Of a DNA stretch of 63,413 nucleotides, positions 21,832 to 45,709 are shown piece by piece (position 1 is the stretch's first letter; each line of letters starts with the position of its first letter). Made by a program: the position numbers and the translations under genes. Origin of the DNA: Planctomycetaceae bacterium (GTDB lineage: Bacteria; Planctomycetota; Planctomycetia; Pirellulales; UBA1268); contig SXWA01000142.1 of assembly GCA_005791575.1 (NCBI GenBank), forward strand, positions 1 through 63,413. Reading direction: 5' to 3'. Below the pieces are notes generated by a model. That model ran no database searches and was not told the DNA's origin. It was given only the letters and a program-made list of their open reading frames with translations.

Positions 21832-21889
21832 CGCGCGCCTCCCGTGCCTCGACCGCGGGCCACCCAGCCGGCCCGCACGGCCCGACCGG

Positions 21890-23101: not shown

Positions 23102-23276
23102 GGTGTCGAAAACCCTGCCGACCGTGGGCCCGGGAACGCGCCCCCGCAGGGAGTGTACGCGGGCAGCCGTTTCGGCGCCGACAATCAACCACCGCGCCGC
23201 CGCGCCATGAACACGAAACAAGACAAGCCCCCCGCGCAGCCAGCGTCAGCATGGCGGCCCCGGGGGACCGCAGCCA

Positions 23277-23399
23277 TCAGCCCGTGGCCACAATCCATCC
23301 CTGGCGTTTTGCCACTCGAAACGCCGCGCTTTTCACGGGAGCCGCGCTCCCGGCACCTCCTCCTCGAGGTGCCGCAGGCTGTTTGTCCACAGCCTGCTA
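23277..23399. repeat. five-hairpin interspersed repeat, copy A (reverse orientation)
   Basis: Alignable by eye to copies B-H. Lies between the divergent AI-2E and GT2 genes. Confidence 0.85.
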
Positions 23400-23483
23400 T
23401 CCTGACGACTCACGTCCGCGGAACACCGCCGCCTGTGTGTCGGCCGGTGCCGCTGGACAGGTCCGCTCCCCCATGGTCGCCGC

Positions 23484-29073: not shown

Positions 29074-29437
29074 GGGAATCTCCAGGAATGAGGGATCGGA
29101 AACGATGATCAAGAAAATAATGAATCGACTCATCGCGAAGCGATGGGCTCCCGACAGCTCGGGACGCCGGCAAACCATCCAACGGTCAGTACCAAACCAC
29201 CGAAGGGTTGGAGCACTCAAGGCGGGCAGCCCGCGTTCGGAACTGACCCGGTCTTCCGCGGAAATCGTCGTTATCCTAGAGTTTTTCCACGCAAACGGCA
29301 ACTTTTTGCCTTCCGGGCAATCCCCTCGACCGGGGAGAATGCCCTCGGGCCCCAACGGCCTGGAAGCCTTCGTGCGGCGCTGCTCCTGAAAACCAGGTGC
29401 CCGCCGGGGCCCCAGCGGACGGCGGTATGCTGATCGC

Positions 29438-30592
29438 ATGATCGATTCTGCTGCGGGGTTCTTCGCCGCCGTGCTGGCGCTGGCAGGACTGTTTCCGGTG
29501 CTCGCCACCCGCTGGCCGCAGCCGTTTTCCGTCGTGCCGCCGATCGTCTGGTCGTACGTGGCGACGACCCTGCTCGCCCTCTGCGGGGCCTGGTCTCAGA
29601 GCCCGGCGATCCATGGGGTCCAGCAGGCGGCGTCGGCCCGCCTCATGCCGGCGCTGGTCTTTCTCCTCATGGTGGGCTGCGATCTGCGGGCAATCGTCGG
29701 CCTCGGTCCCCGGGCGCTGGGGGCGTTCGCCTGCGCCAGCGGGTCGATCCTCGTCGGGCTGGCCGTGGCCTGGGTCGCCTGGCGCGGCTGGCTCCCCGCC
29801 GAAGGCTGGCAAGCCCTCGGCTGCCTGGGGGGAAGTTGGGTCGGTGGCACGGCAAACCTGGTCGCCACCGGTCAGGGCATCAGTGCGGCCCCGGCGATGG
29901 TGGCAGCGGCCCTGCTTGTCGATACGATCTGCTACGCCGCCTGGGTGACATTGCTCTTCGCCACCGTCCCGCTGGCGGGACGATTCGACCATTGGGTGCG
30001 CGCCCGCCCCTGGGATGCCCCCACCACCGGCGCGCGGGCCCCGGAGGCGGCCGCCACCCCGGGGCATGTCCTCTGCTGGCTCGCGGCGGCGCTGGCGGTG
30101 GGCCTCACTGCCGGGCGGCTCGCCGACTCACTGCCGTCCGACGGACCGCTCACCCCGGGAACCTGGACCCTGCTTTTCGCCTCCCTCGCCGGCTTGGTCG
30201 TCGCGGTCACCCCCCTGGCACGACTGCCGGGTGCGGCGGGGGTCGGTTCGGGCCTGCTCGCGGTGGCGGTGGTGACGCTCGCGGCCCAGGGGGATGTGCG
30301 CGGACTCGATCGCGTGGTGTGGCTGGTCGCCGCGGGATTCACCGCGCTGGTCGTCCATGCCCTGCTCATGCTGGCAGCCGCGCGCCTCTGGGGCTTCGAT
30401 CTCGCGCTCTGCGGCATCGCCTCGCTGGCGAGCATCGGTGGCATCGCCTCGGCGCCGCTGCTGGCTGCAGCCCATCGCCATCAGTTGGTTCCGGTCGCCG
30501 TCCTCCTGGCGCTGGTCGGGTACCTTTTCGGCACCTGGGCCGGGATCGGTCTGGCGACGGCACTGTCCCGCTTCCCTGGAGTCACTCCATGA
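29438..30592 (+). CDS. DUF819-like polytopic membrane protein
   Basis: About 10 hydrophobic segments and duplicated WVGGTAN / SIGGIAS blocks. Family assignment is from memory. Confidence 0.6.
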
Positions 30593-32028
30593 TCCCGACG
30601 TGCGGCCCGCGCCAGCGTGCGTCATGTCGCCTGCCGGCGCTGCTCGCCCTCGCCGCGGTGCTCGCCCTCGCCACGCTCCTCGTCGCTCCCGCATCCGGAT
30701 GCGGCGCCGACCCGGCGCACGGCCGGCCCTTCCCGCTCGAGATCCCCACCGAACGGCTCACCGCGGACTTCTGGATCGGCCGCGCCGCCGGCTGCGAGCA
30801 GGTTCTGCTCACACCGCCGGCGGTTGCCGGCCAAAACGGCCGCGTGATCGCTGCCGGTCCGGGTCTCCACGACCCGGCCGCACTCCCCGCCCGTCTGCCC
30901 CGGGCCATGGTGACGCACCTCGTCGAAGGTCTCGCGGCGGGCAACCGGGCCCGCCCCGTGATCGACGGTGCGGAGGCGGCCGACCTCACGGCGACCCTCG
31001 CCCTCGACCGCATTCCCGCCGAAGTGACACCGCGCTATGCCCTCGCCGTGAGGCGTGCCGACCTGCGGACCTTTCCGAGCGCTGCCCGGGGGCGCTTGAA
31101 GCCGGGCGACACCGATATCGACCGCTATCAGGAGTCGGCCCTCTTTCCCGGCACTGCGGTGGCTGTGCTCCACGAAAGTCGCGACGGGCTCTGGGCCTTC
31201 GTGATGGCACCGCTCTACGCCGCCTGGGTCGCCACCGACGCGCTGGCCGTGGGGGAACGAAAGACGGTGTTCGATTATGCGGCAACCGCCAGCCGCGTCG
31301 TGACCGGGCCCGCCGTCCGCACGGTCCATGCCCCGCTCGCGCCACCGCTCTCCGAGATCGTGCTCGACATGGGAGTGGCCGTGCCGGAGGTGACCGATTG
31401 GCCGCTGACCACGCCGGTTAACGGCCAGGGCGCTCTCGGCGCTCTCGTCGTGCGGCTTCCCACCCGCGCTGCCGACGGCACGCTGGCGGTGCAGCCGGCG
31501 CTCCTGCCGCGCGGCGCCGACACCCACGACGGCCCGCTCCCCGTCAGCCGTGCCAACCTCCTCCGACAGGCCTTCAAGTTCGTCGGCGAACGCTACTGCT
31601 GGGGCCACGGCGGGAGCGGCCGCGACTGCAGCGGCTTCGTGGCGGAATGCCACCGCAGCCTCGGCCTGGTGCTCCCGCGCAACAGCAAGGATCAGGCCGC
31701 CTGCACGGCGTCGTTCCGCCGCACGGTGATTCCCGGGACGGCCGATCGTGATCAGCGGCTCGCGGCCCTCGCCGATCTGGCCCCCGGTGATCTGATCCAT
31801 GTGCCCGGGCACGTGATGATGGTCGTCGGCGCGGATGAGCTCGGGCCCTGGATCATCCACGACTCCCACGCCGCCACGGTCCGGGGACCGGATGGCAAGG
31901 CTCTCCGCCTGCCGACCAATTCGGTGGTCGTCTGCCCGCTCGAGCCCCTCCTCCGCGACGACGGCGCGAGCCTGATCGACTCGATCACGGTGCTCCAGCG
32001 CTATCTGCCCGGCGCGCCGCTCCCCTGA
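30589..32028 (+). CDS. secreted NlpC/P60 (C40) peptidase with SH3b-like region, YkfC-like
   Basis: The ATG at 30589 overlaps the upstream stop (ATGA). Lipoprotein-like signal ...LLVAPASGC. Catalytic RYCWGHGGSGRDCSGFV and downstream GHVMMVVG. Confidence 0.8.
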   Translation: MIPTCGPRQRASCRLPALLALAAVLALATLLVAPASGCGADPAHGRPFPLEIPTERLTADFWIGRAAGCEQVLLTPPAVAGQNGRVIAAGPGLHDPAALPARLPRAMVTHLVEGLAAGNRARPVIDGAEAADLTATLALDRIPAEVTPRYALAVRRADLRTFPSAARGRLKPGDTDIDRYQESALFPGTAVAVLHESRDGLWAFVMAPLYAAWVATDALAVGERKTVFDYAATASRVVTGPAVRTVHAPLAPPLSEIVLDMGVAVPEVTDWPLTTPVNGQGALGALVVRLPTRAADGTLAVQPALLPRGADTHDGPLPVSRANLLRQAFKFVGERYCWGHGGSGRDCSGFVAECHRSLGLVLPRNSKDQAACTASFRRTVIPGTADRDQRLAALADLAPGDLIHVPGHVMMVVGADELGPWIIHDSHAATVRGPDGKALRLPTNSVVVCPLEPLLRDDGASLIDSITVLQRYLPGAPLP

Positions 32029-32126
32029 CGGTGCTCCCCTGCCGGTGCGATACTGCCGGCGCCGCCGCGCGGCCGACGAGCGTCCGCTCCGCTTGCCGAT
32101 CCGCTCGGCTGCACTCTCGGCCCGCG

Positions 32127-34226
32127 TCAGGGAGCCGCGGCGGGCGGCAGCGTCCAGCCGTGCATGAAGAGGTTCCGCGCGTCGACGTAGCGGGCGTCGG
32201 TGGTGGTCGATCCGAGCACCACCACCACCAGCGCGCGACCGTCGCGCTCCCCCCAGGCCGCCAGGCAGCACCCGGCGACGGCGGTCGTGCCGGTCTTCAC
32301 GCCGGAATAGCCTTCGATCGGCAGGAGGCGATTGGTGTTCTTCCAGACCACCGGCCGCCGCGAGCCATCGACCGACTCGATCGTCGCCCCGCGCTGCCGG
32401 GTGGCGACGATCGCGCGGAACAGCGGCAGCTCCATCGCCACGCGCACCAGCGCCGCGATCTCGGCGGCAGTCGTCTCGTGGCCCGGGGCGGTCTTGCCGT
32501 GGGTGTTGCGGTAGCTGGTGCGGGCGAGCCCCAGTTCGGCGGCGGTGGCGTTCATCCGGGCGACGAACCGGTCGAGCGGATCGACGGCCACCCCGTCCGC
32601 TGCGGCAGCCCCTGTGAGCCGGGCCCCGACATGCTCCCCCAGCGCCACCGAGGCGTCGTTGCCGGAGGGCAGCATGAGGCCGTAAAGCATCTCGCGGACG
32701 GAGACCCGGTCGCCGGGCCGGAGCATCGCCGACGATCCGGTTTCCTGCCCGGCCCGGGTCGAGACCGTGATCATCTCGTCGAGCAGGCCGGGCGCCGCCG
32801 CGGCTTCACGGAGCACCACCAGCGCGGTCATCACTTTCGTGATGCTGGCGGGCGACCGGCACGTGTCGGCATCGCGGCCGGCCAGGCGCCGTCCCGTGGC
32901 CGCCTCGACGATCACCCACGACGGCGCCGTGGTCTGCGGCGGCCCGCCGCCCGCGTCGGCCGCCGCCACCGGGAGCCGCTCGGCGTTCACCGTCTCTGCA
33001 TCGGGCAGGGGCGGATCGGCGGTGATCAGCGTGCCCAGGGCGCGCCACGTGGCGGCATCGACAATCCCGCTGCCGGGCAGCCCGCTCTCATCCTGCAAGC
33101 GGCGCACCGCAGCGGCAGTGGCGGGACCGAAGTCACCATCCACACCGAGCCGGGCCGCAGCCGGCAGGCGGGCGTTGAGCGAGCGCTGCAGTTCCTCGAC
33201 CACCACACCCGATGCTCCCTGAGCGAGCGGCTGCGGGCTGGCAGGACGGTCCTCCGCGTGCCGGGCGGCGAAGTAGGCGGCGATCTCCCGACCACAGGCG
33301 GCGATCAGGTCCTCCGCCGCCCCGCCGTCGATGCGCCGATCCTTGTTGTCGGTGGTGAGGAGGCAGTAGGCCACCGGCCCCCCGGGGCCGAGGAGGATGC
33401 CGGCGTCGGTGCGCGAGCCGGAGACACCGCCCGTCTTGTGGGCACAGCGCCATCCGGCCGGCAGCTCGCGCGGCACCATCCGGGTGTCGTCGCAGGCGAG
33501 GAGATGGGAGAGGATCGCGGGCGTGCTGCCGGCGGGGATGATCCCCCGCGCCTCCAGCTCACCGCCGTGGAGCAGGGAGAGGAGGCGGACGAATTCCGCC
33601 GCGGTCCCGCTCCCCAGTCCGTAGAGGCGGCTGCGCTCGGGATCGAGTGAGGTGTCGCGCCGGTAGACGAGTGAATTGAGCCGGATCTCCCTGAGCCCGA
33701 GGTCGGCCATCAGCGCCGTCGTCGCCGGTCGGCCGATCCGCTCGACCACGAGATTCGTGGCGGTGTTGTCGCTGGCGGCGATCATCATCCTGATCCAATC
33801 GACCAGCGGCAGTTCGGCCCCGTCCGACAGGAGATCGACCACGCGTGAGCCCGGCACGCGGTCGCCGGCAGCGAGCGGCACCCGGTCGGTGAGCGCCACC
33901 CGCCCCTCCTTCACCGCCCGGTAGGCGGCGAGCATCACCGGGAGCTTCACCAGGCTCGCCGTCGGCATCGCCTCGTCGGCGCGCAGCGCGTAGCGCTCAC
34001 CGGTGGGCAGATGCTCGACCGCCACCGCCACCCGTCCCTCGTGGGCGTTGATCAGCGGCAGGAGCGCGTCCTCGAGCGAATCGGCCGACTCGGTCGCCAC
34101 GGCGCTGCCGGCCGCGGCAGGACCGAGAAGGAGCAGCAGCAAAAGCGCCGACGACTGGATCGCGCGGGCCACCCGGTCGCACCCCATCCGGCATCCGCAG
34201 CGCATGCGCATCGCTCGTCTCCTCAT
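32127..34226 (-). CDS. tri-domain PG hydrolase: class A beta-lactamase-fold + PG_binding_1 + S11 D-Ala-D-Ala carboxypeptidase
   Basis: Signal peptide present. Domain 1 has SLVK / SDN / KTGG. The middle has GVDGDFGPATAAAVRRLQ. Domain 3 has SITK / SGND / KTGTT. The ATG overlaps the epimerase stop (ATGA). Confidence 0.8.
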   Translation of the reverse strand: MRRRAMRMRCGCRMGCDRVARAIQSSALLLLLLLGPAAAGSAVATESADSLEDALLPLINAHEGRVAVAVEHLPTGERYALRADEAMPTASLVKLPVMLAAYRAVKEGRVALTDRVPLAAGDRVPGSRVVDLLSDGAELPLVDWIRMMIAASDNTATNLVVERIGRPATTALMADLGLREIRLNSLVYRRDTSLDPERSRLYGLGSGTAAEFVRLLSLLHGGELEARGIIPAGSTPAILSHLLACDDTRMVPRELPAGWRCAHKTGGVSGSRTDAGILLGPGGPVAYCLLTTDNKDRRIDGGAAEDLIAACGREIAAYFAARHAEDRPASPQPLAQGASGVVVEELQRSLNARLPAAARLGVDGDFGPATAAAVRRLQDESGLPGSGIVDAATWRALGTLITADPPLPDAETVNAERLPVAAADAGGGPPQTTAPSWVIVEAATGRRLAGRDADTCRSPASITKVMTALVVLREAAAAPGLLDEMITVSTRAGQETGSSAMLRPGDRVSVREMLYGLMLPSGNDASVALGEHVGARLTGAAAADGVAVDPLDRFVARMNATAAELGLARTSYRNTHGKTAPGHETTAAEIAALVRVAMELPLFRAIVATRQRGATIESVDGSRRPVVWKNTNRLLPIEGYSGVKTGTTAVAGCCLAAWGERDGRALVVVVLGSTTTDARYVDARNLFMHGWTLPPAAAP

Positions 34227-35278
34227 CCTGCCGCTGCCCGGCTCGACGCGGGAAGTGGCCCGTCAAACAACTCCACACCGGTGCCGCTCCCTTGGGGAAA
34301 CACTGCCTTCCCCTCCACCACCCGCACGCCGGTGGCGATGTCGGCGGCGAGCAGTGCGGCACCATCCATGTCGACGTGGTCGAGCAGCGGCAGCAACTGG
34401 GCCAGTGCCGAGATGCCGACCGTCGATTCGGTCATGCAGCCGACCATCACCCCGAGCCCGAGTGACCGGGCCGTGGCGATCATCCGCCGCGCCGGCGCCA
34501 GTCCACCGCACTTGACCAACTTGATGTTGATGCCGTGGAACAGCCCGGCGCAGCGGGCGACATCCCCCTCGGCCGCGCAGCTCTCGTCGGCAAAAACCGG
34601 CAGAGCCGAGTGGCGATGGACGTCCGCCATCCCCGGGTCGCCCGGCGGGAGGGGTTGCTCGATGAACTCGACCCCCAATTCCGCCAGCGGACCGGAGAGG
34701 GCGATCGTCTGATCCACCGTCCAGCCGCAGTTGGCATCGACGCGGAACGGCCGGTCGGTGTGCCGGCGCAGCTCGCGCACGATCGCCAGATCGTCGGCGG
34801 TGCCGAGCTTGATCTTGAAGATCGGCCAGTCGGCTGCGGCCGCGAGCTTCTCGCGCATCACCGCGATCGTGTCGATGCCGATGGTGAAGTTGGACACCGG
34901 TCCCACCGCCCGGTCGAGCCCCCACCAGGTCGCCAGCGGCAGGCCGGCACGGCGGGCGGCGAGATCGTGGAGCGCCATGTCGAGCGCGCAGCGTGCGAAC
35001 GGCTCGTCAGCCAGCTCCGCTTCGAGCCGGGAGAGGGTCTCCGGCAGCCGGGCCGTCGTCGATTCCGCCAACAGTGGCCTGGCCCGCTCGGCGGCGGCAG
35101 CGAGCCGGGGGATCGTCTGCCCGTAGAACGGGTTGGTGGTGGCCTCGCCGTAGCCGTGGAGCCCCCCTTCCGAGAGCTGGACCACGAAGGTGTCCTGCAC
35201 GGCGACGCTGCCCCGCGCGATCGTGAACACGTGGCGCAGCGGCAGCGCGAACGTGGCGTGTGCCATCCCGATGCTCAT
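34223..35278 (-). CDS. enolase-superfamily dipeptide (L-Ala-D/L-Glu) epimerase-like
   Basis: FKIKLG (KxK), VDANCGW, IEQPL, ADES and NIKLVKCGG blocks. ATGA overlap with the DUF1611 stop. Confidence 0.85.
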   Translation of the reverse strand: MSIGMAHATFALPLRHVFTIARGSVAVQDTFVVQLSEGGLHGYGEATTNPFYGQTIPRLAAAAERARPLLAESTTARLPETLSRLEAELADEPFARCALDMALHDLAARRAGLPLATWWGLDRAVGPVSNFTIGIDTIAVMREKLAAAADWPIFKIKLGTADDLAIVRELRRHTDRPFRVDANCGWTVDQTIALSGPLAELGVEFIEQPLPPGDPGMADVHRHSALPVFADESCAAEGDVARCAGLFHGINIKLVKCGGLAPARRMIATARSLGLGVMVGCMTESTVGISALAQLLPLLDHVDMDGAALLAADIATGVRVVEGKAVFPQGSGTGVELFDGPLPASSRAAAG

Positions 35279-36363
35279 GACGTCTCTCCGCTACCGACTG
35301 CCGCGTCCCGTGCCACGCGCAGCCGCTCCACCGCCCCGACCAATTCATCGCAGCCGTCACGGACCGGATCGGCCACGGGAAGGCCGAACTCGGCCCTCAA
35401 CCGCTCGCTCTCGCGCGCCGCCCCATCCGCATCGAGCATCCGGCCGTTGAGCGCGATCCCGATCACCGTCCCGCCACCGCCGAACGCCGCCATCTGCTCG
35501 TAGGCGGCGATCGTCCGCGCGATCGAGGGGAGCGCCACGTGCGGCAGCCCGCCGTGGTGGAGCCGCCCCGGCTCGTGGACGAGGATCATCCCGTGGGGCA
35601 GCGCCCCGTGGAGCAGGCCGAGCGACACCGCCGAATAGCGCGGATGGGTGATCGTCGCCTGCCCCTCCACCACCAGGACCTCGTGATGCTGGTTGGCGAG
35701 CACGAGCTTCTCGACCGCGCCGTTGACGAAATCGGAGATCACCCGGTCGATCGGGCAGCCGTCTCCCTCGACCATGATCCCGGTCTGCCCCGTGGCGACA
35801 AACTTGGCATCGACCCCGCGCCGGGAGAGCGCCCGGGTGAGCTCCACGGCGGCGACCATCTTGCCGATCGAACAGTCGGTGCCGATGGTGAGGATCCGGG
35901 TGCAGTCCGCGCGGATGCCGAGCCGGCTGGCGACGTCGCGCTCGTCGTTGCGGCGGACATCGACGATCCGGCCCCCGTGTCGCGCTGCCGCGGCGGCGAG
36001 TTCGGGGTCGTCGGCAAGGAAGTCGTGGAGCCCGGAGACGATCGTCATGCCGCGGGCAAGGGCCTCGAAGAGCACCGGCCGCCAGGCCTCCGGCACGCGG
36101 CCGCCAGGGGGAGCGATGCCGATCACCAGCTCCGTGGCGGAGGGGGCCGCAGCGAGCCGCCCGATCACCGGGATCGCACCCCCGACGCCGAGCACGTCGT
36201 GCGCCGTCTGCCCGGCGGCGGTGCCGTCGAGGATCGCCACGACCTCGTCGGGGCAGTAGCGCAGGAGGCAGGAGGCGGTCTTTGCGGTCACCGGGTCGCA
36301 GTGGCCCTCGGTGAGCAGCACCATCCGTCGGCGCGCTGGCCGGGCGGGACCGGATTCGGGCAT
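35275..36363 (-). CDS. DUF1611 domain protein
   Basis: GAGGA 7 nt upstream of the ATG. GTDCSIGKM P-loop-like block and overall DUF1611-like layout (recalled). Confidence 0.75.
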   Translation of the reverse strand: MPESGPARPARRRMVLLTEGHCDPVTAKTASCLLRYCPDEVVAILDGTAAGQTAHDVLGVGGAIPVIGRLAAAPSATELVIGIAPPGGRVPEAWRPVLFEALARGMTIVSGLHDFLADDPELAAAAARHGGRIVDVRRNDERDVASRLGIRADCTRILTIGTDCSIGKMVAAVELTRALSRRGVDAKFVATGQTGIMVEGDGCPIDRVISDFVNGAVEKLVLANQHHEVLVVEGQATITHPRYSAVSLGLLHGALPHGMILVHEPGRLHHGGLPHVALPSIARTIAAYEQMAAFGGGGTVIGIALNGRMLDADGAARESERLRAEFGLPVADPVRDGCDELVGAVERLRVARDAAVGSGETS

Positions 36364-36516
36364 CGCACCATCCTCGGAAAGCCGTCTGGGCAGAGGGGGA
36401 GTCCGCAGGCCGCGAGTATCGCCCCGGGCCCGGGGGCGTCAACCTGGTGACCGCGCCGGTAAGCTCTTTCCCGCAACGCAGGCCCACTTCCCCGGCGAAG
36501 CGAGTGAGACGAGCCG

Positions 36517-37353
36517 ATGCGAAACGACGGTGCTTCCGGTGAGCGGCGACCGCGCCGCGCCGCGGTCAGTCTTGCCGCGGTCCATCTTGCCGCGGCGGGC
36601 GTCATCGCCGGCATCGCGCCCGCGACCGCCGCGGAAGTGGCACCGATCGTGGATGGCACCGTCCGGCAGGTCGTGCTCGTCGTGACACCCTCGTGGGAGG
36701 CGACGACAGGGAGGCTCGCCTGGTGCGATCGCGGCGTCGATGGTGGCTGGCGTCGGGTCGCTGACCCGGTGGCGATCACCGTCGGCCGGGCCGGATGCGG
36801 CTGGGGCATCGGCCTGCATCCAGCCGCCATTCCCGGGCCCGGCAAAAGCGAGGGGGATGGGCGCTCGCCGGCAGGGGTGTTCGCGATCGGCACCGCGTTC
36901 GGCGCCGCCCCGTCGCTCGACACGGGCCTCCCCTACCGGCCGCTCGATGCCGACGACTGGTGCATCGACGTGGCCCGGTCACCGCTCTACAACCGGATCG
37001 TGAGCAGCCGCGACGTGGGCAACGCGGCGGTCACGGGCAGCATGGAGCCGATGCGGCGCGACCTGCCCCCGACCGCCGATGGCCAATACGCCGTGGGCTT
37101 CGCCATCGGCCACAATCCGCGCGGTCTGGCGGGCATGGGGAGTTGCATCTTCGCCCACATCGTCGCCGGCCCCGGTGTGCCGACCTCGGGATGCACCGGC
37201 TTGGCCGATGACGACCTGCGCCGGCTGCTGCGCTGGCTGCGCGGGGAGGCCCGCCCCCTGTTCGTGCTGCTGCCGGAATCGGAGCTCGGCCGACTCACCG
37301 GCTGGGGGCTGCCGATGGCGGACGATCTGATCACGGAGCCCGCATCGCGATGA
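36517..37353 (+). CDS. secreted L,D-transpeptidase-fold (YkuD-like) protein
   Basis: Signal-like N-terminus. The block SCIFAHIVAGPGVPTSGCTGL gives the His ... Gly-Cys catalytic arrangement. Confidence 0.6.
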   Translation: MRNDGASGERRPRRAAVSLAAVHLAAAGVIAGIAPATAAEVAPIVDGTVRQVVLVVTPSWEATTGRLAWCDRGVDGGWRRVADPVAITVGRAGCGWGIGLHPAAIPGPGKSEGDGRSPAGVFAIGTAFGAAPSLDTGLPYRPLDADDWCIDVARSPLYNRIVSSRDVGNAAVTGSMEPMRRDLPPTADGQYAVGFAIGHNPRGLAGMGSCIFAHIVAGPGVPTSGCTGLADDDLRRLLRWLRGEARPLFVLLPESELGRLTGWGLPMADDLITEPASR

Positions 37354-38600
37354 AGGCCGCCGCGCTCGTCCTACTCGGGCTGCTGGCCGGCGCCACCGCC
37401 GGGCTGCTGCTTCCCAGCCTGCCCCCCGCGTGGGCCGATGCGGCCGTGGCCGCCGCCCGACCGCTCGGCCGGGCTTGGCTCTCGGGCCTGCAGATGACCG
37501 TGCTGCCGCTGGTGGCCGCGATGCTCGTCGTCGGAGTCAACGAGGCCAGCGCCGCCGCCAGTGGACGCATCGCCCGCCGGGCGCTGGCGTGGATGGTGGG
37601 GTTGGCACTCCTCGCGGCGGCGATCGGCGCGGTGCTGGCGCCGGCGCTGCTGCAGCTCGTGCCGCCCGATCCCCGGCTCGTCGAATCGCTCCGCAGCCAG
37701 GCCCCGCCCGACCCGGTGGCCGGCGATCCGCTCGACGGGGTCGCGGGCCTCGTGCCGAGCAATCCGTTCGCCGCCCTGGCGTCGGGCCGCGTGGTGCCGG
37801 TCGTGGTCTTCATGCTCTGCTTCGCGGCGGCGCTCACGCAGCTGCCCGCGGCGCGGCGGGAGCCGATCCTGGCGGTGGCGCGCGGCGTGGCCGAGGCGAT
37901 GCTCGTGATCGTGCGCTGGCTGCTGCGCCTCGCCCCACTCGGAGTTGCCGCCGTCATCCTCCCGGTGACCGTCGCGGCCGGCGCGGCGGCGCTCGGGGCG
38001 CTGGGGATGTACCTCGTGGTGCTCCTCGCGGTGTACGGCGTGATCGGCGTGGTGGTCTACCTCGTGGCCTGGGGTGGCGGTCTGTCGCCGGGCCGCTTCG
38101 CCGCGGCGATCCTCCCCGCGCAGGCGGTCGCCGCCGGCACGCAGAGCTCGCTGGCGACGCTGCCGGCGATGATCGACTGCGCGGAGAAGCGGCTCGGGGT
38201 CACGCCGGCGGTGACCGGGCTCGTCCTCCCGCTGGCGGTGTCGTTGTTCCGGATCACGAGCCCCGCGCAGTATCTCACCATGGCGAGTTTCATCGCCTGG
38301 GCCGAGGGGATCGTGCTCCCCCCCGGGGCGGTCGCGGTGGCGGTCGTCCTCGCGGTGATCATCAGCCTCGGCGCGGTCGGTCTGCCCGGCCAGGCGAGCC
38401 TGCTGAGCACGTCGCTGCCGCTGGTGCAGTCGCTCGGGCTGCCGCTCGAGCCGCTCGGGTTGCTCCTCGCGGTGGACTTCGTTCCCGACATCGCCGCCAC
38501 GGCCTGCAATGTCACGGCCGATCTGGCGGTGACCGGGCGGGTCGCGGCGGCCGAGGCTCGGGTCCGACCGCCGGCGGGGCCTCAGGGCACGTCGGGATAG
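37350..38600 (+). CDS. dicarboxylate/amino acid:cation symporter (DAACS family)
   Basis: ATGA overlap with the upstream stop. Polytopic protein with SSLATLP and GLPGQASLL hairpin-loop-like blocks. Confidence 0.8.
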   Translation: MKAAALVLLGLLAGATAGLLLPSLPPAWADAAVAAARPLGRAWLSGLQMTVLPLVAAMLVVGVNEASAAASGRIARRALAWMVGLALLAAAIGAVLAPALLQLVPPDPRLVESLRSQAPPDPVAGDPLDGVAGLVPSNPFAALASGRVVPVVVFMLCFAAALTQLPAARREPILAVARGVAEAMLVIVRWLLRLAPLGVAAVILPVTVAAGAAALGALGMYLVVLLAVYGVIGVVVYLVAWGGGLSPGRFAAAILPAQAVAAGTQSSLATLPAMIDCAEKRLGVTPAVTGLVLPLAVSLFRITSPAQYLTMASFIAWAEGIVLPPGAVAVAVVLAVIISLGAVGLPGQASLLSTSLPLVQSLGLPLEPLGLLLAVDFVPDIAATACNVTADLAVTGRVAAAEARVRPPAGPQGTSG

Positions 38601-39823
38601 AGGAGCCACGGGCGCCGTTCCTCGCGCCACGCCTCCTCCTCCGCCAGCGTGACGGCATCGAGATCGGCAGCCGTCGCTTCGGGGTCGTCCACCCATTGGC
38701 GCAGGCGCGGTCCACCGCAGATCACGTCGATCGCCTTTCGCTCGAACTCATATTCGTAGGCGAAGTCGCGCCACAACGGTTCGTCGGGGCGGAGCCGGCG
38801 GAATGCCTTGAGCGCCGCGGCCAACAGGCGCCAGGGGCGGAAGCGGGCCGGATCGTGCCCGACATCGTCGACGTGGATCTGCACCCCCCCGCAAAGCAGT
38901 CCGGCGTGCTTGTGGAAGGTGGGCTCGAACCAGCACGGCCGCAGCCGGCACCCCGGTAGCCACTGCGGCGCCAGCGATTCGATCGTGGCCAGCCAGTCGG
39001 CACCGTCGATGCCGGGAAACCCCCACTGCTCCAGCGGCCGTGTCGTGCCGCGCCCCTCCGAGAGCCAGGTGCCCTCGAGGAGCACCGTGCCGGGATAAAC
39101 TCGCGGCATCCACGGGCTGGCGGCATTGGGGCTCGGGTTCACCCAGGTGCGCTCTCCGAGCGGCCACCCCCACCCCGGCGCCGAGCCGGGCTGCCAGCCG
39201 ACGAGCGGCACGACCGACCACGCCACGTCGAGGCCCAACCGCGCCACGAACCAGCCGGCCATCTCGCCGAGCGTCAGGCCGTGGCGCATCGGCAGCGGTC
39301 CGGCGCCGACGAAACTCTCCTCCCCCGGCTCCAGGCGCAGCCCTTCGACGGGGCGCCCGGCGGGATTGGGGCGGTCGAGCACCCACACCTCACGGTCGGT
39401 CGCGGCCGCGGCCTCGAGAACGAAGCGCAGCGTGGTGAGGAACGTGTAGACACGGCAGCCGACGTCCTGGAGATCGACGAGCAGCAGATCGCAGTCGGCG
39501 AGCATCGCCGCCGTCGGGCGCCGCACCCGGCCGTAGAGGCTGTGCACCGGGATCCCCAGCCGCGGATCGCGGAAGTCGTCCGACTCCTGCATGTTGTCCT
39601 GCTTCTCGCCGCGCAGGCCGTGCTGCGGGCCGAGCGCCGCGACCACGTCGACGCCCGCGGCCGCCAGCGCGTCGAGCGTGTGGGCACAGCACGCCGTGAC
39701 GCTCGCCGGATGCGCGACCACCGCCACGCGCCGACCGGTGAGCCGGCCGAGAAGGTCACAGTCGGAAAGGAGTCGATCGATGCCGAAATCCATCAACTCC
39801 CCCCGTGCGGCAGGCATCGTCAC
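38582..39823 (-). CDS. namZ: DUF1343 protein (NamZ-like exo-beta-N-acetylmuramidase), cytoplasmic paralog
   Basis: GIDRLL, PQHGLRGE, VDLQDVGCRVYTF, LDRPNP and WVNPSPN blocks. No signal peptide. Alternative start at 39793. Confidence 0.8.
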   Translation of the reverse strand: MTMPAARGELMDFGIDRLLSDCDLLGRLTGRRVAVVAHPASVTACCAHTLDALAAAGVDVVAALGPQHGLRGEKQDNMQESDDFRDPRLGIPVHSLYGRVRRPTAAMLADCDLLLVDLQDVGCRVYTFLTTLRFVLEAAAATDREVWVLDRPNPAGRPVEGLRLEPGEESFVGAGPLPMRHGLTLGEMAGWFVARLGLDVAWSVVPLVGWQPGSAPGWGWPLGERTWVNPSPNAASPWMPRVYPGTVLLEGTWLSEGRGTTRPLEQWGFPGIDGADWLATIESLAPQWLPGCRLRPCWFEPTFHKHAGLLCGGVQIHVDDVGHDPARFRPWRLLAAALKAFRRLRPDEPLWRDFAYEYEFERKAIDVICGGPRLRQWVDDPEATAADLDAVTLAEEEAWREERRPWLLYPDVP

Positions 39824-39844
39824 TTCGGCCGTTCAGCGGGCCGT

Positions 39845-41683
39845 TCAGCGGGCGGCGCGGCGGGCGGCGGCGATCCGCGCTCCCTCCGCCGCCGGATCGG
39901 TGACCATCATCATCGCCACGGGCGCCTCGCCGTCACGCGCCAGTCGTGTGGTCACCGCTTCGGCAAGTCCTGTCGTGCCCGTGAGCAGCCCCCCTGCCAC
40001 CCGCAGCGTCCACCCACCCGCCCCGGCCGGGCGCCGCCGCACCACGGCCAGCACCATCCGCGCCAGGTCGTCGGCAGCCGCATCGATCAGTGCCGTCGCC
40101 ACGCCATCGCCCTCGTCGGCCGCGGCGATGACGTCCGCGGCGAACGCCGCGATCCGCTCGCGGCCCATCTCGGGCCGTTGGATGACGGTCACCAGATCCT
40201 CCGGACGGGCCACGCCGAACCGGACCAGGGCGCGGGAGGCGAGGGTGGTCGCCGGCCCGCGCCCATCGGCCGCCGCCGCCACCGCCGCCAGCGCCGCGCG
40301 GGCGATCGACCAGCCGCTCCCCTCGTCGCCGATCACCGCCCCCCAGCCACCGGCCCGGTCGAGTCGGCCAGCGGCCGCGTGGGCCAGCGCGAGCGAACCG
40401 GTTCCGGCGATCAGGGCGACCGCGGCCCCGGGCGGGCCGTCGCCCAGCACGAGTTCGCCATCGGTGACGACGACAAGGTCGGCGGCGATGTCGGCGAGCA
40501 AGGCGGCGACCGCTGCGGCATCGACCTGCCGTCCCGCCCCCGCCAGCCCCAGGCAGGCCGTCGCCACCGGCTGCGGACTGCGTCCGGCGGCGGTGAAGGC
40601 AGCGGCGACGGCATCCCTGATCCCGGCGGCAGCCGCCGGTGCGCCGACCGCACGCGGATTGGCCGGACCGCCCGTGCCGCGCCCGAGGATCGTCACGCCC
40701 CCCGCCTCCAGCCGGGCGAGCACCGCACGGCAGCCGCTGCCGCCACCATCCACCCCGATCACGAGGTCGCCGGCGGTGGGCGCCGGTCCGACGGCAGGCT
40801 CGGCGATCGCGCCGCGCAACTGGCCGTCGGCCACGGTGAGGAGCTGCCGCGCCTCGTCCGTCGAGACACCGCGCCGTGCGGCCACAATCGCCGTCTTCAG
40901 TTCGCCACCGTGACGGAGCAGCAGATCGGTGGCGGCGGCCTCGTCGAGCCCGGTGAGCCGGGCCGCAATGCGCCGGCTGCGGTCGAGGAGCTTGGAGTTG
41001 GTGGCCCGCAGGTCGACCATCAGATTACCGTACGTCTTGCCGAGACGGATCATCGCTCCGGTGGAGAGCATGTTGAGCACGAGCTTGGTGGCGGTGCCGG
41101 CCTTGAGGCGTGTCGATCCGGCGATCACCTCCGGCCCGACCAGCGGCACGATCGCCAGGTCGACCGCCGCGGCGAGCGGCGATTCGGGGCTGCACGCCAG
41201 TCCGACCGTGAACCCACCGCGCCCCCGGGCATGGGCCACCCCGCCGAGCACGTAGGGGGTGCGTCCGCTGGTGGCGATCCCGACGAGCACGTCGGCGGCA
41301 CCGAAACCGATCCCCTCGAGGTCGGCGACGGCGAGCTCGGGCCGGTCCTCGGCCCCTTCGATGGCGCGTGTCAGGGCCGACGGTCCACCGGCGATCAGGC
41401 CGATCACCATCCCGGGCGGCGTGCTGAAGGTCGGCGGGCACTCGCTCGCATCGAGCACGCCGAGGCGTCCCGACGTGCCGGCCCCGAGGTAGACCAGCCG
41501 GCCACCGCGACGGAGCCGTTCGGCGATGACGTCGATCGCCTGCGCGATCGCCTCCCCTTCGCTGGCGACGGCGGCGGCGATCAGCGCGTCCTCGGCGGCC
41601 ATCGCGCGGACGATGCCCCGGGAGTCGAGCGAGTCGATCGCGGCGGTGGCGGGGTTGACCGCCTCGGTGGCGAGTGGGCGCAT
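39845..41683 (-). CDS. murQ: MurNAc-6-P etherase (MurQ) fused to BadF/BcrA-type sugar kinase domain
   Basis: ORF 39845..41872 trimmed to the ATG at 41683. The N-terminal half has [34 protein letters not shown] and [12 protein letters not shown]. The C-terminal half has [12 protein letters not shown] ... AGTGS ... GDEGSG. Confidence 0.85.
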
Positions 41684-41817
41684 GCGGTCTCGCGGGCTGG
41701 CGTGCCGCCGGGGGATGATCACGGCGGAGAGCGGCACACTATACTCCTGCCGCCGGCGGGGGTCGCCCGCGGTCATGCCCGACGCTGGGGCCCGCGGCGA
41801 ACGCCGTGGAGAAACGC

Positions 41818-43305
41818 ATGAACGCGGTGCTCGGTCCGGTCGACATCGTCGTGCTCGTCGCCTTCCTGGCATCGGCGGTGGCGATCGGCCTGTTCGCCGG
41901 CGGCCGGACCAGGACCCTCGACGCCTACCTCCTCGGCGACCGCGACCTCCCCTGGTGGGCGATCCTCGGCTCGATCGTCGCCACCGAGACCAGTGCCGCG
42001 ACGGTGCTGAGCGTGCCCGGCGAGAGCTTTGGAGCGGCCGGGATGCGCTTCCTGCAGCTCCCGCTGGGCTACATGGTCGGCCGGCTGGCGATCGTGCGCT
42101 TTCTCCTGCCGCTCTATTTCCGCGGCGACCTCAACACCGCCCACGAGGTGCTCCGCGACCGCTTCGGCCCGCTGATCCAGCGCGCCGCCGCCACCCTGTT
42201 CCTCGTGGCACGCAATCTCGGCGACGGCCTCCGGCTGTTTCTCGCGGCCCTGGTCTTCCAGAAGCTCAGTGGCCTGCCCCTGGCCTGGAGCGTGGGGGTG
42301 ATGGGCGCCGTCACGATCCTCTACACGGTCCTCGGAGGCCTGCGGAGCGTGGTCTGGAACGACTGCCTCCAGTTGGTGATCTACCTGATCGGCGGGATCG
42401 TGGCGGTGTTCGTCATCGTCGCGCGGATCCCCGGCGGATGGCCCGCCGCGTGGGAGTTCGCCGCCGCCGGTGAGAAACTCCGCGTCTTCGACTTCTCCTT
42501 CGACCTCGCCAATCCCTACACGTTCTGGGCCGGCCTCGTCGGCGGTGCCGTGCTCAGCCTCGGCACCCACGGCACCGACCACATGATGGTGCAGCGCTAC
42601 CTGAGCGCCCGCGGCGAGCGCGAGGCGGCGCGGGCGCTGCTCACCAGCGGCGTGGTCGTGTTTCTCCAGTTCGCCTTGTTCCTCGGCATCGGGGTGCTCC
42701 TCGCCGCCTTCCACTCACTCGGCGGTGAGGCGGCCCCGAGCAGGCCCGACGAGGTGTTCGCCACGTTCATCATCCGCCACTTCCCGGCGAACACAGGGCT
42801 CATCGGCCTGCTCCTCGCGGCGATCCTCGCGGCGGCGATGTCGACGATCGCCAGCTCGCTCAACGCCTCGGCGTCGTCGATGATCCACGACCTCTGGTTG
42901 CCGCTCCGCGCGGCGTCGGGCCGCCGCGCCCCGCTGGCGCCCGGCGCGGCGCTGACGCTCACCCGCTGGCTGACCCTGGGCTTCGGTGTGGTGCAGATCG
43001 CCGTGGGCATCGCCGCCGCCGGTTTCGCTGCCACCGTGGTCAGCCGTGCCCTGACGATCGCCGGCTATTCCGCCGGACTCCTCCTCGGGGTCTTCGTGCT
43101 CGGTGCGGCGACGCGCCGGGTCGGCCAGGAGGCGGCCCTCGTCGGCGGCACCGCCGGCCTCGCGGCGCTGCTGACGGTGCAGTTCGTGCTGCCCGGGGCC
43201 GGCGTCAGGATCGCCTGGCCATGGTACGCGCTCATTGGCGCGGGTGTGACGATCGCGGTCGGCTGGTTGGCGGCGACGGTAGTCCCCCGGAGGACGACGG
43301 CATGA
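41818..43305 (+). CDS. sodium:solute symporter family transporter
   Basis: GGAGA 6 nt upstream of the ATG at 41818 (the ORF opens at GTG 41806). About 13 TM segments and an SSF-like [10 protein letters not shown] block. Confidence 0.8.
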
Positions 43306-45689
43306 CACGACGGCAGGTGATGGCGACGACCGGCGCGGTGCTCATGGCGGCGGTCCTCTGGGGCGTTGCCGGGATGACCGGCGCCTGCGCACAGGCTCTG
43401 CCGGTCGTGCCTCCCGGCGACATCGGGCTGATGGCGGAACGGTTGGCGACGATCAAGCCGCTCGTCGAGGCCGAGATCGCCGCCGGGAATCTGCCCGGCT
43501 GCGTGGTCTGCGTCGGCCGCGGCAGCCGGATCGGCTGGCTCGAGGCGATCGGCGACCGGCAGGTGGGCCCCGACGCAGAGCCGATGACGGTCGACACGAT
43601 CTTCGACCTCGCCTCGCTCACCAAACCGGTCGCCACCGCCACCGCCATCATGCAATTGGTCGAGGAGGGCAAACTGCGCCTCTCCGACACCGTGGCCAGC
43701 CTCTTCCCGGCGTTCGCCGCCAAGGGCAAGGAGAAGATCACCGTCCGCGATCTGCTCGTCCACACCAGCGGCCTGATCGCCGACAACGCCCTGGCCGACT
43801 ACGCCGACGGCCCGGAGAAGGCGATCGAGCGGATCATGGATCTCGAGCCGCTCGCGCCTCCCGGCGAACGGTTCATCTATTCCGACGTCAATTTCATCCT
43901 CCTCGGCGAACTGGTGGCGAAGCTCTCCGGCCGGCCACTCGCGGAGCAGGTGCGCGAGCGGATCTGCCGGCCGCTGGGGATGGCCGACACCGGCTTCCTT
44001 CCCGCCGCTGAACTCCGCCCGCGGATCGCGCCCACCGAGCCGCGCGACGGCGCGCCGCTCAGGGGGGCCGTCCACGATCCCCGCGCCTGGAAGCTCGGCG
44101 GCGCCGCCGGCCATGCCGGCCTCTTCGGCACTGCCCCCGATCTGGCTGTCTATGCCTCCGCGCTCCTCGCCGCCGGCCACGGCAGTGCGGTCGCCGGCAG
44201 TGCGGTCGCCGGCAGTGCGGTCGCCGGCAGTGCGGCTCCGATCCTCGGTCCACGGGCGGTCGCCGAGATGACCCGCCCGTGGCGCGTGCCGGGTGGAGGA
44301 ATGCGCGGTCTCGGCTGGGACAAGCGGAGCGGCTTCTCCTCCAACCGCAGCGACCTCTACACCGACACCGCCTTCGGCCATGGCGGATTCACCGGCACGA
44401 GCCTCTGGATCGACCCCCGCCTCGATCTGTTCGTGATCTTCCTCTCGAGCCGGCTCCACCCCGATGGCAAGGGGCTGGTGAATCCGCTCGCCGCGCGGAT
44501 CGGTTCGGTGGCGGTGGCCGCGATCGGCACGCCCACCACGGTGGCCGAGCCGGCACGGCAGGTGCTCACGGGGATCGATGTCCTGGTGCGTGACGGATTC
44601 CGCCAGCTCGCCGGCCGGCGCGTCGGCCTGATCACCAACCACACCGGCCGGACACACGACGGCCGGACCACGCCGGCGGCGCTCGGCGAGGCGAAGGGGC
44701 TCGAGTTGGTGGCGCTGTTCAGCCCCGAGCACGGTTTCGCCGGCGCCCTCGACCAGTCGGACGTGCCCGACGCGAAGGATCCGGCGACCGGGCTGCCGGT
44801 GCGGAGCCTCTACGGCAAGACGCGCCGCCCCACGGCGGAGATGCTCGCCGACCTCGACACGCTCGTCTACGACATCCAGGACATCGGCTGCCGCTTCTAC
44901 ACCTATGTCTCGACGAGGGGGGAGGCAATGAAGGCGGCCGCCGAGCAGGGGAAGCGGTTCGTCGTCCTCGACCGGCCCAACCCGATCAACGGCATCGACG
45001 TGGCGGGCCCGATGCTCGATCCGGGCAGCGAGTCGTTCGTCGGTTGGCACACGCTCCCGCTGCGCCACGGCATGACCGTCGGCGAACTGGCGCGGCTGTT
45101 CAACGAGGAACTGAAGCTCGGCCTCGATCTGGTGGTCGTGCCGTGCGAGGGCTGGAGGCGCGCCGATGCCTGGGAGGCGACGGGGCTCGAATGGGTCAAC
45201 CCCTCGCCCAACATGCGCAGCCTCACCGAGGCCTTCCTCTATCCGGGCATCGGCCTGCTCGAGACGACCAACGTGTCGGTGGGGCGTGGCACCGACACCC
45301 CCTTCGAGGTGATCGGCAGCCCGTGGATCGACGGTCCGGTCCTTGCCGCGGCGCTCGCCGCCCGCGGTCTGCCGGGGGTGGCCTTCGTGCCGCTCACCTT
45401 CACCCCCGACGCGAGTACGTTCAAGAACGAGCGCTGCGGCGGGGTGAACGTCCTCATCACCGACCGCGCCGCCTTCGATCCGGTGCGCACCGGCCTCGAG
45501 ATCGCGGCTGCCCTGCGCCGCCTCCACCCCGAGGCGTGGAAGGTGGACGGCTACGGCCGTCTGCTGGCGAGCAAAGCCGTGCTCGACGCGATCCGCACCG
45601 GTGGCGATCCCCAGGGCGTGATCGACCTCTCGGCCGCCGGCCTGCGCGAGTTCCACGCCCGGCGCACCCCGCACCTGCTCTACGACTGA
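43302..45689 (+). CDS. exported beta-lactamase-fold (AmiE/AmpH-like) domain fused to DUF1343/NamZ domain
   Basis: The ATG at 43302 overlaps the symporter stop (ATGA). Tat-like [25 protein letters not shown] and YSDVN motifs in the N-terminal half. The C-terminal half parallels the 38582..39823 protein (GIDVL, PEHGF, YDIQDIGCRFYTY, LDRPNP, WVNPSPN). Confidence 0.8.
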   Translation: MTRRQVMATTGAVLMAAVLWGVAGMTGACAQALPVVPPGDIGLMAERLATIKPLVEAEIAAGNLPGCVVCVGRGSRIGWLEAIGDRQVGPDAEPMTVDTIFDLASLTKPVATATAIMQLVEEGKLRLSDTVASLFPAFAAKGKEKITVRDLLVHTSGLIADNALADYADGPEKAIERIMDLEPLAPPGERFIYSDVNFILLGELVAKLSGRPLAEQVRERICRPLGMADTGFLPAAELRPRIAPTEPRDGAPLRGAVHDPRAWKLGGAAGHAGLFGTAPDLAVYASALLAAGHGSAVAGSAVAGSAVAGSAAPILGPRAVAEMTRPWRVPGGGMRGLGWDKRSGFSSNRSDLYTDTAFGHGGFTGTSLWIDPRLDLFVIFLSSRLHPDGKGLVNPLAARIGSVAVAAIGTPTTVAEPARQVLTGIDVLVRDGFRQLAGRRVGLITNHTGRTHDGRTTPAALGEAKGLELVALFSPEHGFAGALDQSDVPDAKDPATGLPVRSLYGKTRRPTAEMLADLDTLVYDIQDIGCRFYTYVSTRGEAMKAAAEQGKRFVVLDRPNPINGIDVAGPMLDPGSESFVGWHTLPLRHGMTVGELARLFNEELKLGLDLVVVPCEGWRRADAWEATGLEWVNPSPNMRSLTEAFLYPGIGLLETTNVSVGRGTDTPFEVIGSPWIDGPVLAAALAARGLPGVAFVPLTFTPDASTFKNERCGGVNVLITDRAAFDPVRTGLEIAAALRRLHPEAWKVDGYGRLLASKAVLDAIRTGGDPQGVIDLSAAGLREFHARRTPHLLYD
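44181..44236. repeat. 15-bp in-frame tandem repeat x3.7 (ggcagtgcggtcgcc; GSAVA)n
   Basis: Read directly. Lies inside the beta-lactamase-fold domain. Confidence 0.9.
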
Positions 45690-45709
45690 GCCGACCGGAG
45701 CGTGCGCCG

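Follow-up and report, generated by a model that had tools for sequence, protein, structure and literature searches.

Eleven consecutive genes at positions 29438-45689 of contig SXWA01000142.1 (assembly GCA_005791575.1), from a Planctomycetaceae bacterium of the Pirellulales (UBA1268), probably make up a peptidoglycan-utilisation system acting on the wall debris of other bacteria. The window analyzed spans 63,413 nucleotides of this contig, has a G+C content of about 72%, and was searched for genes by codon-position GC and open reading frames. By family, motif and fold, each of the 11 products is consistent with a role in peptidoglycan chemistry. An initial annotation of the locus had counted twelve genes, a miscount, as the genes it named are the same eleven; nearly all its family names were confirmed by profile, motif and fold tests, and profile searches reassigned none of the key genes (NamZ, MurQ, YkfC-like, epimerase) to unrelated families. 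The genes are arranged in five units: g01-g02 (+ strand), g05-g04-g03 (- strand), g06-g07 (+), g09-g08 (-), and g10-g11 (+). By eye, signal-like N-terminal segments are present in g02 (lipobox-like, ...ASGC), g03, g06 and g11 (TRRQV, Tat-like), and absent from g04, g05, g08 and g09.

The sugar moiety is the predicted target of g11, g10 and g09. The exported product of g11 (43302-45689, + strand; 795 aa) is a fusion of a PF00144 domain of the AmiE/PBP4B-like type (229 bits) and a Glu-type NamZ module (NamZ_N 276 bits, NamZ_C 147 bits in Pfam). The latter matches the solved structure 4K05 (268 bits), and keeps the SPEHG glutamate, found in 120 out of the best 120 homologues. The catalytic residue of NamZ is proposed to be Glu92 of the Bacillus subtilis enzyme, located at the end of strand 2 (PMC8054146). 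The C-terminal half of g11 thus displays both NamZ/GH171 domains and the conserved Glu, in a protein with a Tat-like signal. In the PF00144 domain the S-L-T-K, Y-S-D-V-N and G-H-G-G-F-T-G motifs are conserved, and the top NCBIfam match of the N-terminal domain is PBP4B, with 126.6 bits against a cut-off of 385. The architecture first described as an AmiE-like amidase fused to NamZ therefore stands at the domain level, the amidase activity being putative, as the PBP4B match is sub-threshold. An in-frame GSAVA tandem repeat (3.7 copies, 44181-44236) occupies a variable loop of the PF00144 domain; the repeat is missing from eight close homologues of g11, and hence is a recent expansion private to this genome.

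The adjacent gene g10 (41806-43305, + strand) encodes an SSF sodium:solute symporter (TIGR00813, 192 bits, cut-off 184), the proposed importer of N-acetylmuramic acid (MurNAc). Symporters of this type adjoin AmiE-NamZ and MurQ/MurK genes in the relatives G034, G035 and G038, and are fused to AmiE-NamZ in single polypeptides of two metagenomic relatives, P0015 (74% identity) and P0021 (68%), which provides a Rosetta-stone link of the importer to the exo-enzymes. The two fused proteins are 1261-1266 aa long, feature SSF, PF00144 and NamZ regions, and retain the one-time signal segment as a linker helix.

The product of g09 (39845-41683, - strand) is a fusion of a MurQ etherase and an ASKHA kinase of the BadF/BcrAD type; a MurQ etherase fused to a sugar kinase had been proposed initially. 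The MurQ half (residues 64-358 of the long form) scores above the curated equivalog and subfamily cut-offs (TIGR00274, 349.7 bits, cut-off 302; NF003915, 388.1 bits, cut-off 168), and has 4S12 MurQ as solved relative (285 bits). The kinase half matches BcrAD_BadFG (PF01869, 100.5 bits), with a DGGGS motif at residue 375; its best solved relative, 8ZO3, is a 'MurNAc/GlcNAc kinase' (100 bits; GlcNAc, N-acetylglucosamine), and this half is a candidate MurNAc kinase. Translation is likely to start at ATG 41683 (612 aa), and unlikely at the upstream ATG 41872; alignments with homologues begin at residues 54-67 of the long form.

The peptide stems are the predicted substrates of the second set of genes. 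The exported, lipoprotein-like product of g02 (30589-32028, + strand) is a putative gamma-D-Glu-diamino-acid endopeptidase made up of SH3b1 (SH3_6, 57 bits) and NlpC/P60 (36 bits) domains, with RDC347SG and PGH motifs. The best solved relative is 3M1U, or DvLysin, with which it shares the scaffold (N-terminal domain, SH3b1, NlpC/P60); its YCWG, RDCSG, PRNS and PGH motifs match those of DvLysin orthologues (PMC4600125). A Tyr residue aligns to Ala211 of DvLysin, as in enzymes specific for stem peptides, and its partner is Asn (PRNS), as in DvLysin, where recycling enzymes have Asp. In YkfC-type recycling endopeptidases, which have a Cys-His-His triad, the free N-terminal L-Ala is recognized by a pair formed by Tyr in the SH3b1 domain and Asp in the catalytic domain, and the single A211Y change made DvLysin specific to free stem peptides (PMC4600125). 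The Tyr/Asn combination of g02 is that of the A211Y mutant, and given the behaviour of the latter the enzyme is predicted to act after the amidase step. The term YkfC-like originally used for g02 is thus correct for the SH3b1-NlpC/P60 core and the Tyr gate, but the scaffold is of the DvLysin type and Asn replaces Asp. The preceding gene, g01 (29438-30592, + strand), encodes a polytopic membrane protein of the DUF819 family (PF05684, 203 bits) with about 11 hydrophobic segments in a hydrophobicity scan. DUF819 proteins are members of the CPA/AT transporter superfamily (PMC8396727), and g01 is a putative importer coupled to g02, with the products of the latter as presumed substrates.

Three domains are present in the exported product of g03 (32127-34226, - strand), described from the start as a tri-domain DD-carboxypeptidase: a class-A-beta-lactamase-like domain (Beta-lactamase2, 194 bits), PG_binding_1 (44 bits) and Peptidase_S11 (174 bits). 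The first contains all four class-A motifs (SLVK91, SDN152, E180xxLN with the omega-loop Glu, KTG264), and scores 109.5 bits with the class A beta-lactamase model NF033103 (cut-off 200). The S11 motifs of the third are complete (SITK461, SGN521, KTG644). The same architecture adjoins the sugar genes in G034 and G035. The product of g06 (36517-37353, + strand) is an exported cysteine peptidase of the YkuD fold. Its Pfam YkuD match is weak (19 bits), and 53 of 55 family members match YkuD; the family includes more than 3200 representatives, in which GSCIF-H214 and T-x-G-C226 are invariant. The AlphaFold2 model (pLDDT 89.9) is closest to the LD-carboxypeptidases Pgp2 and Csd6 (VIA-align Z 12.7 and 12.2), followed by YkuD (10.8) and transpeptidases (up to 10.8), unrelated chains scoring at most 2.5. 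The fold attributed to g06, that of L,D-transpeptidases, is therefore real, but on the model the protein is more plausibly an LD-carboxypeptidase or LD-endopeptidase than a transpeptidase. The next gene, g07 (37350-38600, + strand), encodes a sodium- or proton-coupled amino-acid/dicarboxylate symporter of the DAACS/SDF type (SDF, 249 bits in Pfam); the best NCBIfam matches, GltP (100 bits) and DctA (86 bits), are far under their cut-offs. Glu, D-Ala or another amino acid would be its substrate.

The D-glutamate moiety is the likely target of the g05-g04 pair. The product of g05 (35275-36363, - strand) features the N- and C-terminal domains of DUF1611, has 2OBN and 7XRJ as solved relatives, and is a putative D-glutamate N-acetyltransferase of the DgcN type (NF041892, 278.3 bits, cut-off 480), 38.5% identical to the annotated dgcN product of Pseudoalteromonas sp. 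CF6-2. The product of g04 (34223-35278, - strand) has the N- and C-terminal MR_MLE domains of the enolase superfamily and is a putative N-acyl-D-Glu epimerase or racemase, either DgcA-like (NF042940, 217.2 bits, cut-off 400) or akin to the L-Ala-D/L-Glu epimerases of the YcjG type (NF011708, 140.8 bits, cut-off 343). Among solved structures its closest match is 3IJI, a Bacteroides thetaiotaomicron protein (224 bits) and presumably a dipeptide epimerase crystallised with L-Ala-D-Glu; no DUF1611 gene was found in the B. thetaiotaomicron genome, searched as a control. g04 is 28-31% identical to three annotated DgcA proteins (28% to that of strain CF6-2) and 33% to E. coli YcjG, the YcjG and DgcA proteins being 43% identical to each other. 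Attempts to tell DgcA from L-Ala-D/L-Glu epimerases by identity and by the DxD motif (DMD in g04), which binds the ammonium group of the dipeptide, failed, since bona fide DgcA and YcjG both carry the motif and g04 is about equidistant from the two (28-33%); the better NCBIfam score of DgcA over YcjG is, for the same reason, weak evidence. The order of the two genes and their 4-base overlap are the same as in the dgcN-dgcA pair of Pseudoalteromonas sp. CF6-2. As judged from sequence, it is concluded that the pair probably converts an N-acyl-D-Glu to the L form. The balance tips slightly towards a route of the DgcN/DgcA type (EC 2.3.1.312 and 5.1.1.25, as cited in PMC11747546), the alternative being L-Ala-D-Glu epimerisation, with DUF1611 in another role. 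Of the early description of the pair as a dipeptide epimerase and a DUF1611 protein, both families hold, but g04 may, rather than a dipeptide epimerase, be an N-acetyl-D-Glu racemase that acts together with the DUF1611/DgcN partner.

A second NamZ gene is found on the - strand at 38582-39823. The g08 product is a signal-less GH171/NamZ paralogue (NamZ_N 224 bits, NamZ_C 142 bits), and the frame opens merely 3 codons upstream of the start, which makes a hidden signal peptide impossible. GPQHG replaces the SPEHG motif of the exported type, and in the alignment Gln67 takes the place of the proposed catalytic Glu; in a model of g08 this residue is found just after strand 2 (residues 60-65), where Glu92 is placed in the literature (PMC8054146). 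The closest 120 homologues share 67-72% identity with g08, are about 400 aa long and, like it, have no signal peptide; Gln is present in 119 of them, as in the genus orthologues, and those carrying a source name are mostly from Gamma-, Beta- and Alphaproteobacteria. The subfamily features an invariant GPQHGLRG(D/E)KQDNM motif. The high identity to proteobacterial proteins suggests a strong constraint, and possibly the lateral transfer of genes of this type. Searches of plasmids by tblastn gave distant matches alone (<45% identity), and the G034, G035 and G038 loci examined yielded no g08-type gene. The characterised NamZ enzymes have to date all been secreted (bioRxiv 10.1101/2021.12.02.470905); compared with these precedents, the features of g08 place it in an uncharacterised and strongly conserved cytoplasmic subfamily. 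Having neither the conserved Glu nor an export signal, g08 is a relative of the NamZ/GH171 family and not a demonstrated muramidase. The initial label of cytoplasmic NamZ is thus right as to both NamZ domains and the lack of a signal, but with Gln at the catalytic position a muramidase activity cannot be assumed.

The gene content of the genus indicates where the substrate may come from. The genome carrying the locus (G000) is a metagenome-assembled genome of 3.84 Mb in 274 contigs, 74.5% complete, and was analyzed along with the other members of the genus (five genomes in all, G000-G004; 69, 74.5, 92, 94 and 97% complete), 25 genomes of the family, 41 relatives, and, for MurQ, 301 genomes of the phylum. 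In the five genus genomes AroA was the sole match to MurA, and searches for MurA were likewise negative in the 25 family genomes and in 33 of the 41 relatives. MurG, SEDS polymerases, transpeptidases of the penicillin-binding protein (PBP) type, canonical MraY (weak matches of 43-61 bits), AnmK, GH3 NagZ (PF00933) and, save one fragment, SLT lytic transglycosylases were similarly not found in the five genus genomes. The pattern agrees with the report that most Planctomycetia outside the Planctomycetales lack most mur genes, mraY, ftsI and ftsW (PMC12673574). Since the standard genes for peptidoglycan synthesis were not found, the use of foreign wall material as a source of carbon and nitrogen is most likely, and the exogenous scavenging preferred over self-recycling in the initial annotation is supported. 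All five genus genomes carry a NagA-like gene (193-215 bits vs. a cut-off of 226). GH20 genes were found in three (G001-G003), and neither in the 74.5%-complete genome studied here nor in G004; those at G003:C4:59692-60954 and G001:C10:39346-40608 lie within an open frame of about 1700 aa. No other candidate exo-N-acetylglucosaminidase was found in the genus.

The same enzymes could in principle recycle a wall of the cell itself, which might be non-canonical, in the way that the ybb operon serves B. subtilis and the ampG/nagZ/anmK/murQ genes serve E. coli. Members of these families do have recycling roles in model bacteria (PMC8054146; PMC5061867), studies cited in PMC5147048 and PMC12673574 report the chemical detection of peptidoglycan in planctomycetes devoid of many mur genes, and MurB-like and MurE-like genes persist in the genome. 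Self-recycling is nonetheless improbable, given that MurA, MurG, SEDS, PBP transpeptidases and canonical MraY were not found, that AnmK and nearly all SLT enzymes, hallmarks of Gram-negative turnover, are among the missing genes, and that the absence of the locus from 11 other genera of the family would be odd for a housekeeping function. Still less probable is an anabolic salvage on the Tannerella model, according to which imported MurNAc and peptides build the wall of cells lacking MurA, MurQ merely draining the excess. MurB-like (230 bits, cut-off 259) and divergent MurE-like ligase genes are indeed adjacent (contig C22 of G000, approximately 21500-23730), and T. forsythia, a species without MurA and MurB, relies on NamZ, transporter, MurK and MurQ of the same types (PMC7670621; PMC10465942). 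Yet the steps past UDP-MurNAc-peptide (MraY, MurG, flippase/SEDS, PBPs) were not found, the kinase-etherase fusion sends MurNAc directly to catabolism, and the D-Glu-converting pair points the same way.

The size and order of the gene set are conserved within the genus. All 11 genes are found in identical order and orientation in G001 and G003, where the products are 65-86% identical in amino-acid sequence; at such divergence an identical order is not due to chance, and the comparative check suggested along with the initial annotation is answered by this synteny. The names of close homologues and a neighbouring DUF1559/N-methyl protein indicate Planctomycetota as the phylum of the organism, and its nearest cultured relatives are Pirellulimonas nuda and Pseudobythopirellula maris, both Pirellulales, with g04 homologues at 62-63% identity. 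Within the family the MurQ-kinase and DUF1611 genes occur in this genus only, the 11 other genera sampled lacking both. In G034, which belongs to another family of the same order, seven types of locus genes are re-clustered, in a different order, within 12 kb (g03-like, AmiE-NamZ, SSF, MurQ, MurK, DgcN-like, DgcA-like). The sugar module is kept in G035 (AmiE-NamZ, SSF, MurQ and MurK, plus GH3 and g03-like genes, within 10 kb), and in G038 (fused MurQ-kinase, SSF, NamZ). In G035, a complete genome of 6.06 Mb from the same order, the GH3 gene is NagZ-like and sits between MurQ/MurK and the g03-like gene (G035:C1:3924771-3925754), so that this locus holds a hexosaminidase not found in the genus studied here. 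Across 16 studies, 20 metagenome runs of freshwater or lake samples contain the 9-kb stretch 36517-45689 in nearly unchanged form; none of the sequencing runs listed with this stretch is an RNA run.

These data also bear on the possibility that an amino-sugar route, a D-amino-acid route and hydrolases of the penicillin-binding type, the last serving beta-lactam defence or acting on other peptide or ester substrates, are chance neighbours. The modules are found apart elsewhere (the DUF1611 gene of G035 is 2.7 Mb away from MurQ), PF00144 and class-A-like domains are functionally promiscuous, and a common operator was not found. Each module, on the other hand, targets a different bond or component of one polymer, co-clustering recurs, reordered, in a second family (G034), and synteny extends to 11 genes across the genus at just 65-86% identity; a fortuitous association is accordingly rated as very unlikely.

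The fusions had been singled out as a standout feature of the locus, a view that does not hold. The AmiE-NamZ architecture is very common, at least 8000 candidates being detected at E <= 1e-20; all three domains are present in the best 120 matches, and every taxon-named one among these is from Planctomycetota. Fusions of MurQ to kinases recur in the same phylum, in which MurQ was above cut-off in 118 of the 301 sampled genomes, often in long frames. What sets the locus apart is the way in which the modules are strung together, and not that some genes are fused. The MurQ-kinase gene was found in none of 8 MurA-positive and in 8 of 33 MurA-negative relatives, small numbers from related genomes; with genomes so few and related, and MurQ so widespread in the phylum, no claim of mutual exclusion of MurA and MurQ is made.

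The enzymes belong to the families described above; from these we infer the substrates and the order of steps by which the utilisation of foreign peptidoglycan would proceed. Outside the membrane, the PF00144 domain of g11 would strip stem peptides from MurNAc at the non-reducing end, in an AmiE-like manner, and the Glu-type NamZ domain would then free MurNAc. g03 may trim D-Ala-D-Ala ends and cross-links, the LD-carboxypeptidase-like g06 shorten tetrapeptides, and the Tyr-gated endopeptidase g02 cleave the gamma-D-Glu-diamino acid bond of free stem peptides. MurNAc would be taken up by the SSF protein g10, peptide and amino-acid products by the DUF819 protein g01 and the DAACS protein g07. 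Inside the cell, the kinase half of g09 would phosphorylate MurNAc, and the MurQ half convert MurNAc-6-P to GlcNAc-6-P and D-lactate, the route being possibly continued by the NagA-like deacetylase encoded elsewhere in the genome. g05 and g04 would turn the D-Glu moiety to the L form, through either N-acetylation and racemisation or L-Ala-D-Glu epimerisation. No activity is assigned in the scheme to g08, the cytoplasmic Gln-type paralogue. There are precedents for the main steps: exported NagZ, AmiE and NamZ of B. subtilis digest intact peptidoglycan from chain ends (PMC8054146), and Tannerella scavenges foreign peptidoglycan via NamZ, MurT, MurK and MurQ (PMC7670621; bioRxiv 10.1101/2021.12.02.470905).

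A number of observations weigh against this interpretation. An exo-N-acetylglucosaminidase, needed to expose MurNAc ends, is absent from the locus, and no GH3 enzyme was found in the genus. The assignment of the PF00144 domain of g11 as an AmiE-like amidase draws on analogy with the B. subtilis operon and on the sub-threshold PBP4B match, g04 and g05 both fall under the DgcA and DgcN equivalog cut-offs, g08 is devoid of the proposed catalytic Glu, and the substrates of the three transporters (g01, g07, g10) are guesses. No regulator gene is found within the locus. The persistence of MurB-like and MurE-like genes makes some wall-related anabolism possible, and the absence of a gene from metagenome-assembled genomes is not proof of its absence from the organism.

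The genes within units are tightly packed. ATGA overlaps, already pointed out at several junctions, were found at all five checked (g01/g02, g05/g04, g04/g03, g06/g07, g10/g11), and join an exported enzyme to a transporter, or successive cytoplasmic enzymes. The convergent genes g07 and g08 overlap at the 3' end by 19 bases (38582-38600), leaving no space for an intervening terminator. From their coordinates, the intergenic regions separating the divergent genes g05/g06 (36364-36516) and g09/g10 (41684-41805) are presumed to be promoter regions. No convincing operator is shared by the three promoter regions. A GC-rich word of 11-12 bases, GGGCCCCAGCG or its complement, is common to the region upstream of g01 (29346-29357 and 29407-29418) and to the g09/g10 spacer (41783-41794); it was discarded as a candidate operator, being probably due to chance in DNA with 72% GC. 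The locus is flanked by genes encoding a DUF1559/N-methyl-motif protein (27961-29508) and an FG-GAP repeat protein (45700-47695), neither of which is related to peptidoglycan, and the boundaries initially drawn are therefore right.

Parts of the locus have counterparts in known systems. The B. subtilis murQ-murR-murP-amiE-nagZ-namZ operon (PMC8054146) similarly combines an exported PF00144-type domain, an exported Glu-type NamZ and a cytoplasmic MurQ, in an exo-lytic attack from chain ends. In the planctomycete AmiE and NamZ are fused, SSF and a MurQ-fused kinase replace the MurP phosphotransferase system (PTS), MurR is missing from the locus and GH3 NagZ was not found in the genus, while a Gln-type NamZ paralogue and additional modules for peptides and D-Glu are present; the standard wall-synthesis genes, moreover, were not found in this host. 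The AmpG, NamZ1, MurT, MurK, MurQ cluster of Tannerella forsythia (PMC7670621, PMC10465942, bioRxiv 10.1101/2021.12.02.470905) shares PTS-independent import of MurNAc, a MurK-type kinase feeding MurQ, a periplasmic NamZ, the dependence on foreign peptidoglycan and a host without MurA. In Tannerella, however, the sugar is used anabolically (AmgK/MurU) and a normal wall is built, the amidase is unidentified, and the transporter, MurT, is described as a Bacteroidetes-specific family; the cluster lacks the DgcN/DgcA-like pair, the DvLysin-type enzyme and the LD-carboxypeptidase present here. On the whole, the sugar route resembles the MurT-MurK-MurQ route of Tannerella more than the MurP route of B. 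subtilis.

For the D-Glu step the closest parallel is the dgcR-dgcN-dgcA cluster of Pseudoalteromonas sp. CF6-2, in which a DUF1611 gene is likewise directly upstream of, and overlaps, an enolase-superfamily gene, with peptidase and transporter genes in the neighbourhood and a link to D-Glu derived from peptidoglycan. Differences are the lack of DgcR, the sub-cut-off scores of both g05 and g04 (38.5% and 28% identical to their CF6-2 counterparts), and the closer similarity of g04 to Bacteroides 3IJI than to DgcA. The association of an endopeptidase, an epimerase-like enzyme and a dedicated uptake system is also seen in E. coli ycjG-mpaA-mppA, Bacillus ykfABCD and DvLysin/YkfC (PMC4600125). YkfC enzymes share with g02 the SH3b1-NlpC/P60 core and the Tyr gate, but g02 has the larger DvLysin lipoprotein architecture, and Asn rather than Asp facing Tyr; carriers of the DUF819 or DAACS type replace the ABC systems of the ykfABCD and ycjG routes, and a DUF1611 partner is added.

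All the families involved are known, and the advance is ecological and comparative, with no new principle. The founding NamZ paper does not include Planctomycetota among the NamZ carriers listed (PMC8054146). The locus offers tractable enzymes, such as the AmiE-NamZ and MurQ-kinase fusions, a naturally Tyr-gated DvLysin and the Gln-type NamZ. In lakes and oceans, peptidoglycan and its D-amino acids account for a large share of bacterial necromass and break down slowly; little is known of the organisms that consume them, and the locus points to abundant lake planctomycetes. It also bears on the meaning of the missing mur genes in most Planctomycetia (PMC12673574). More tentatively, the locus may identify a recurrent freshwater lineage of Pirellulales-like planctomycetes that is specialised to consume peptidoglycan and makes none of the canonical kind. 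Far from being a dead copy, g08 would there act in the cytoplasm on an imported fragment containing MurNAc, through a novel activity or mechanism. Should this hold true, the detection of muramic acid or diaminopimelic acid would not by itself demonstrate that such cells make a wall de novo.

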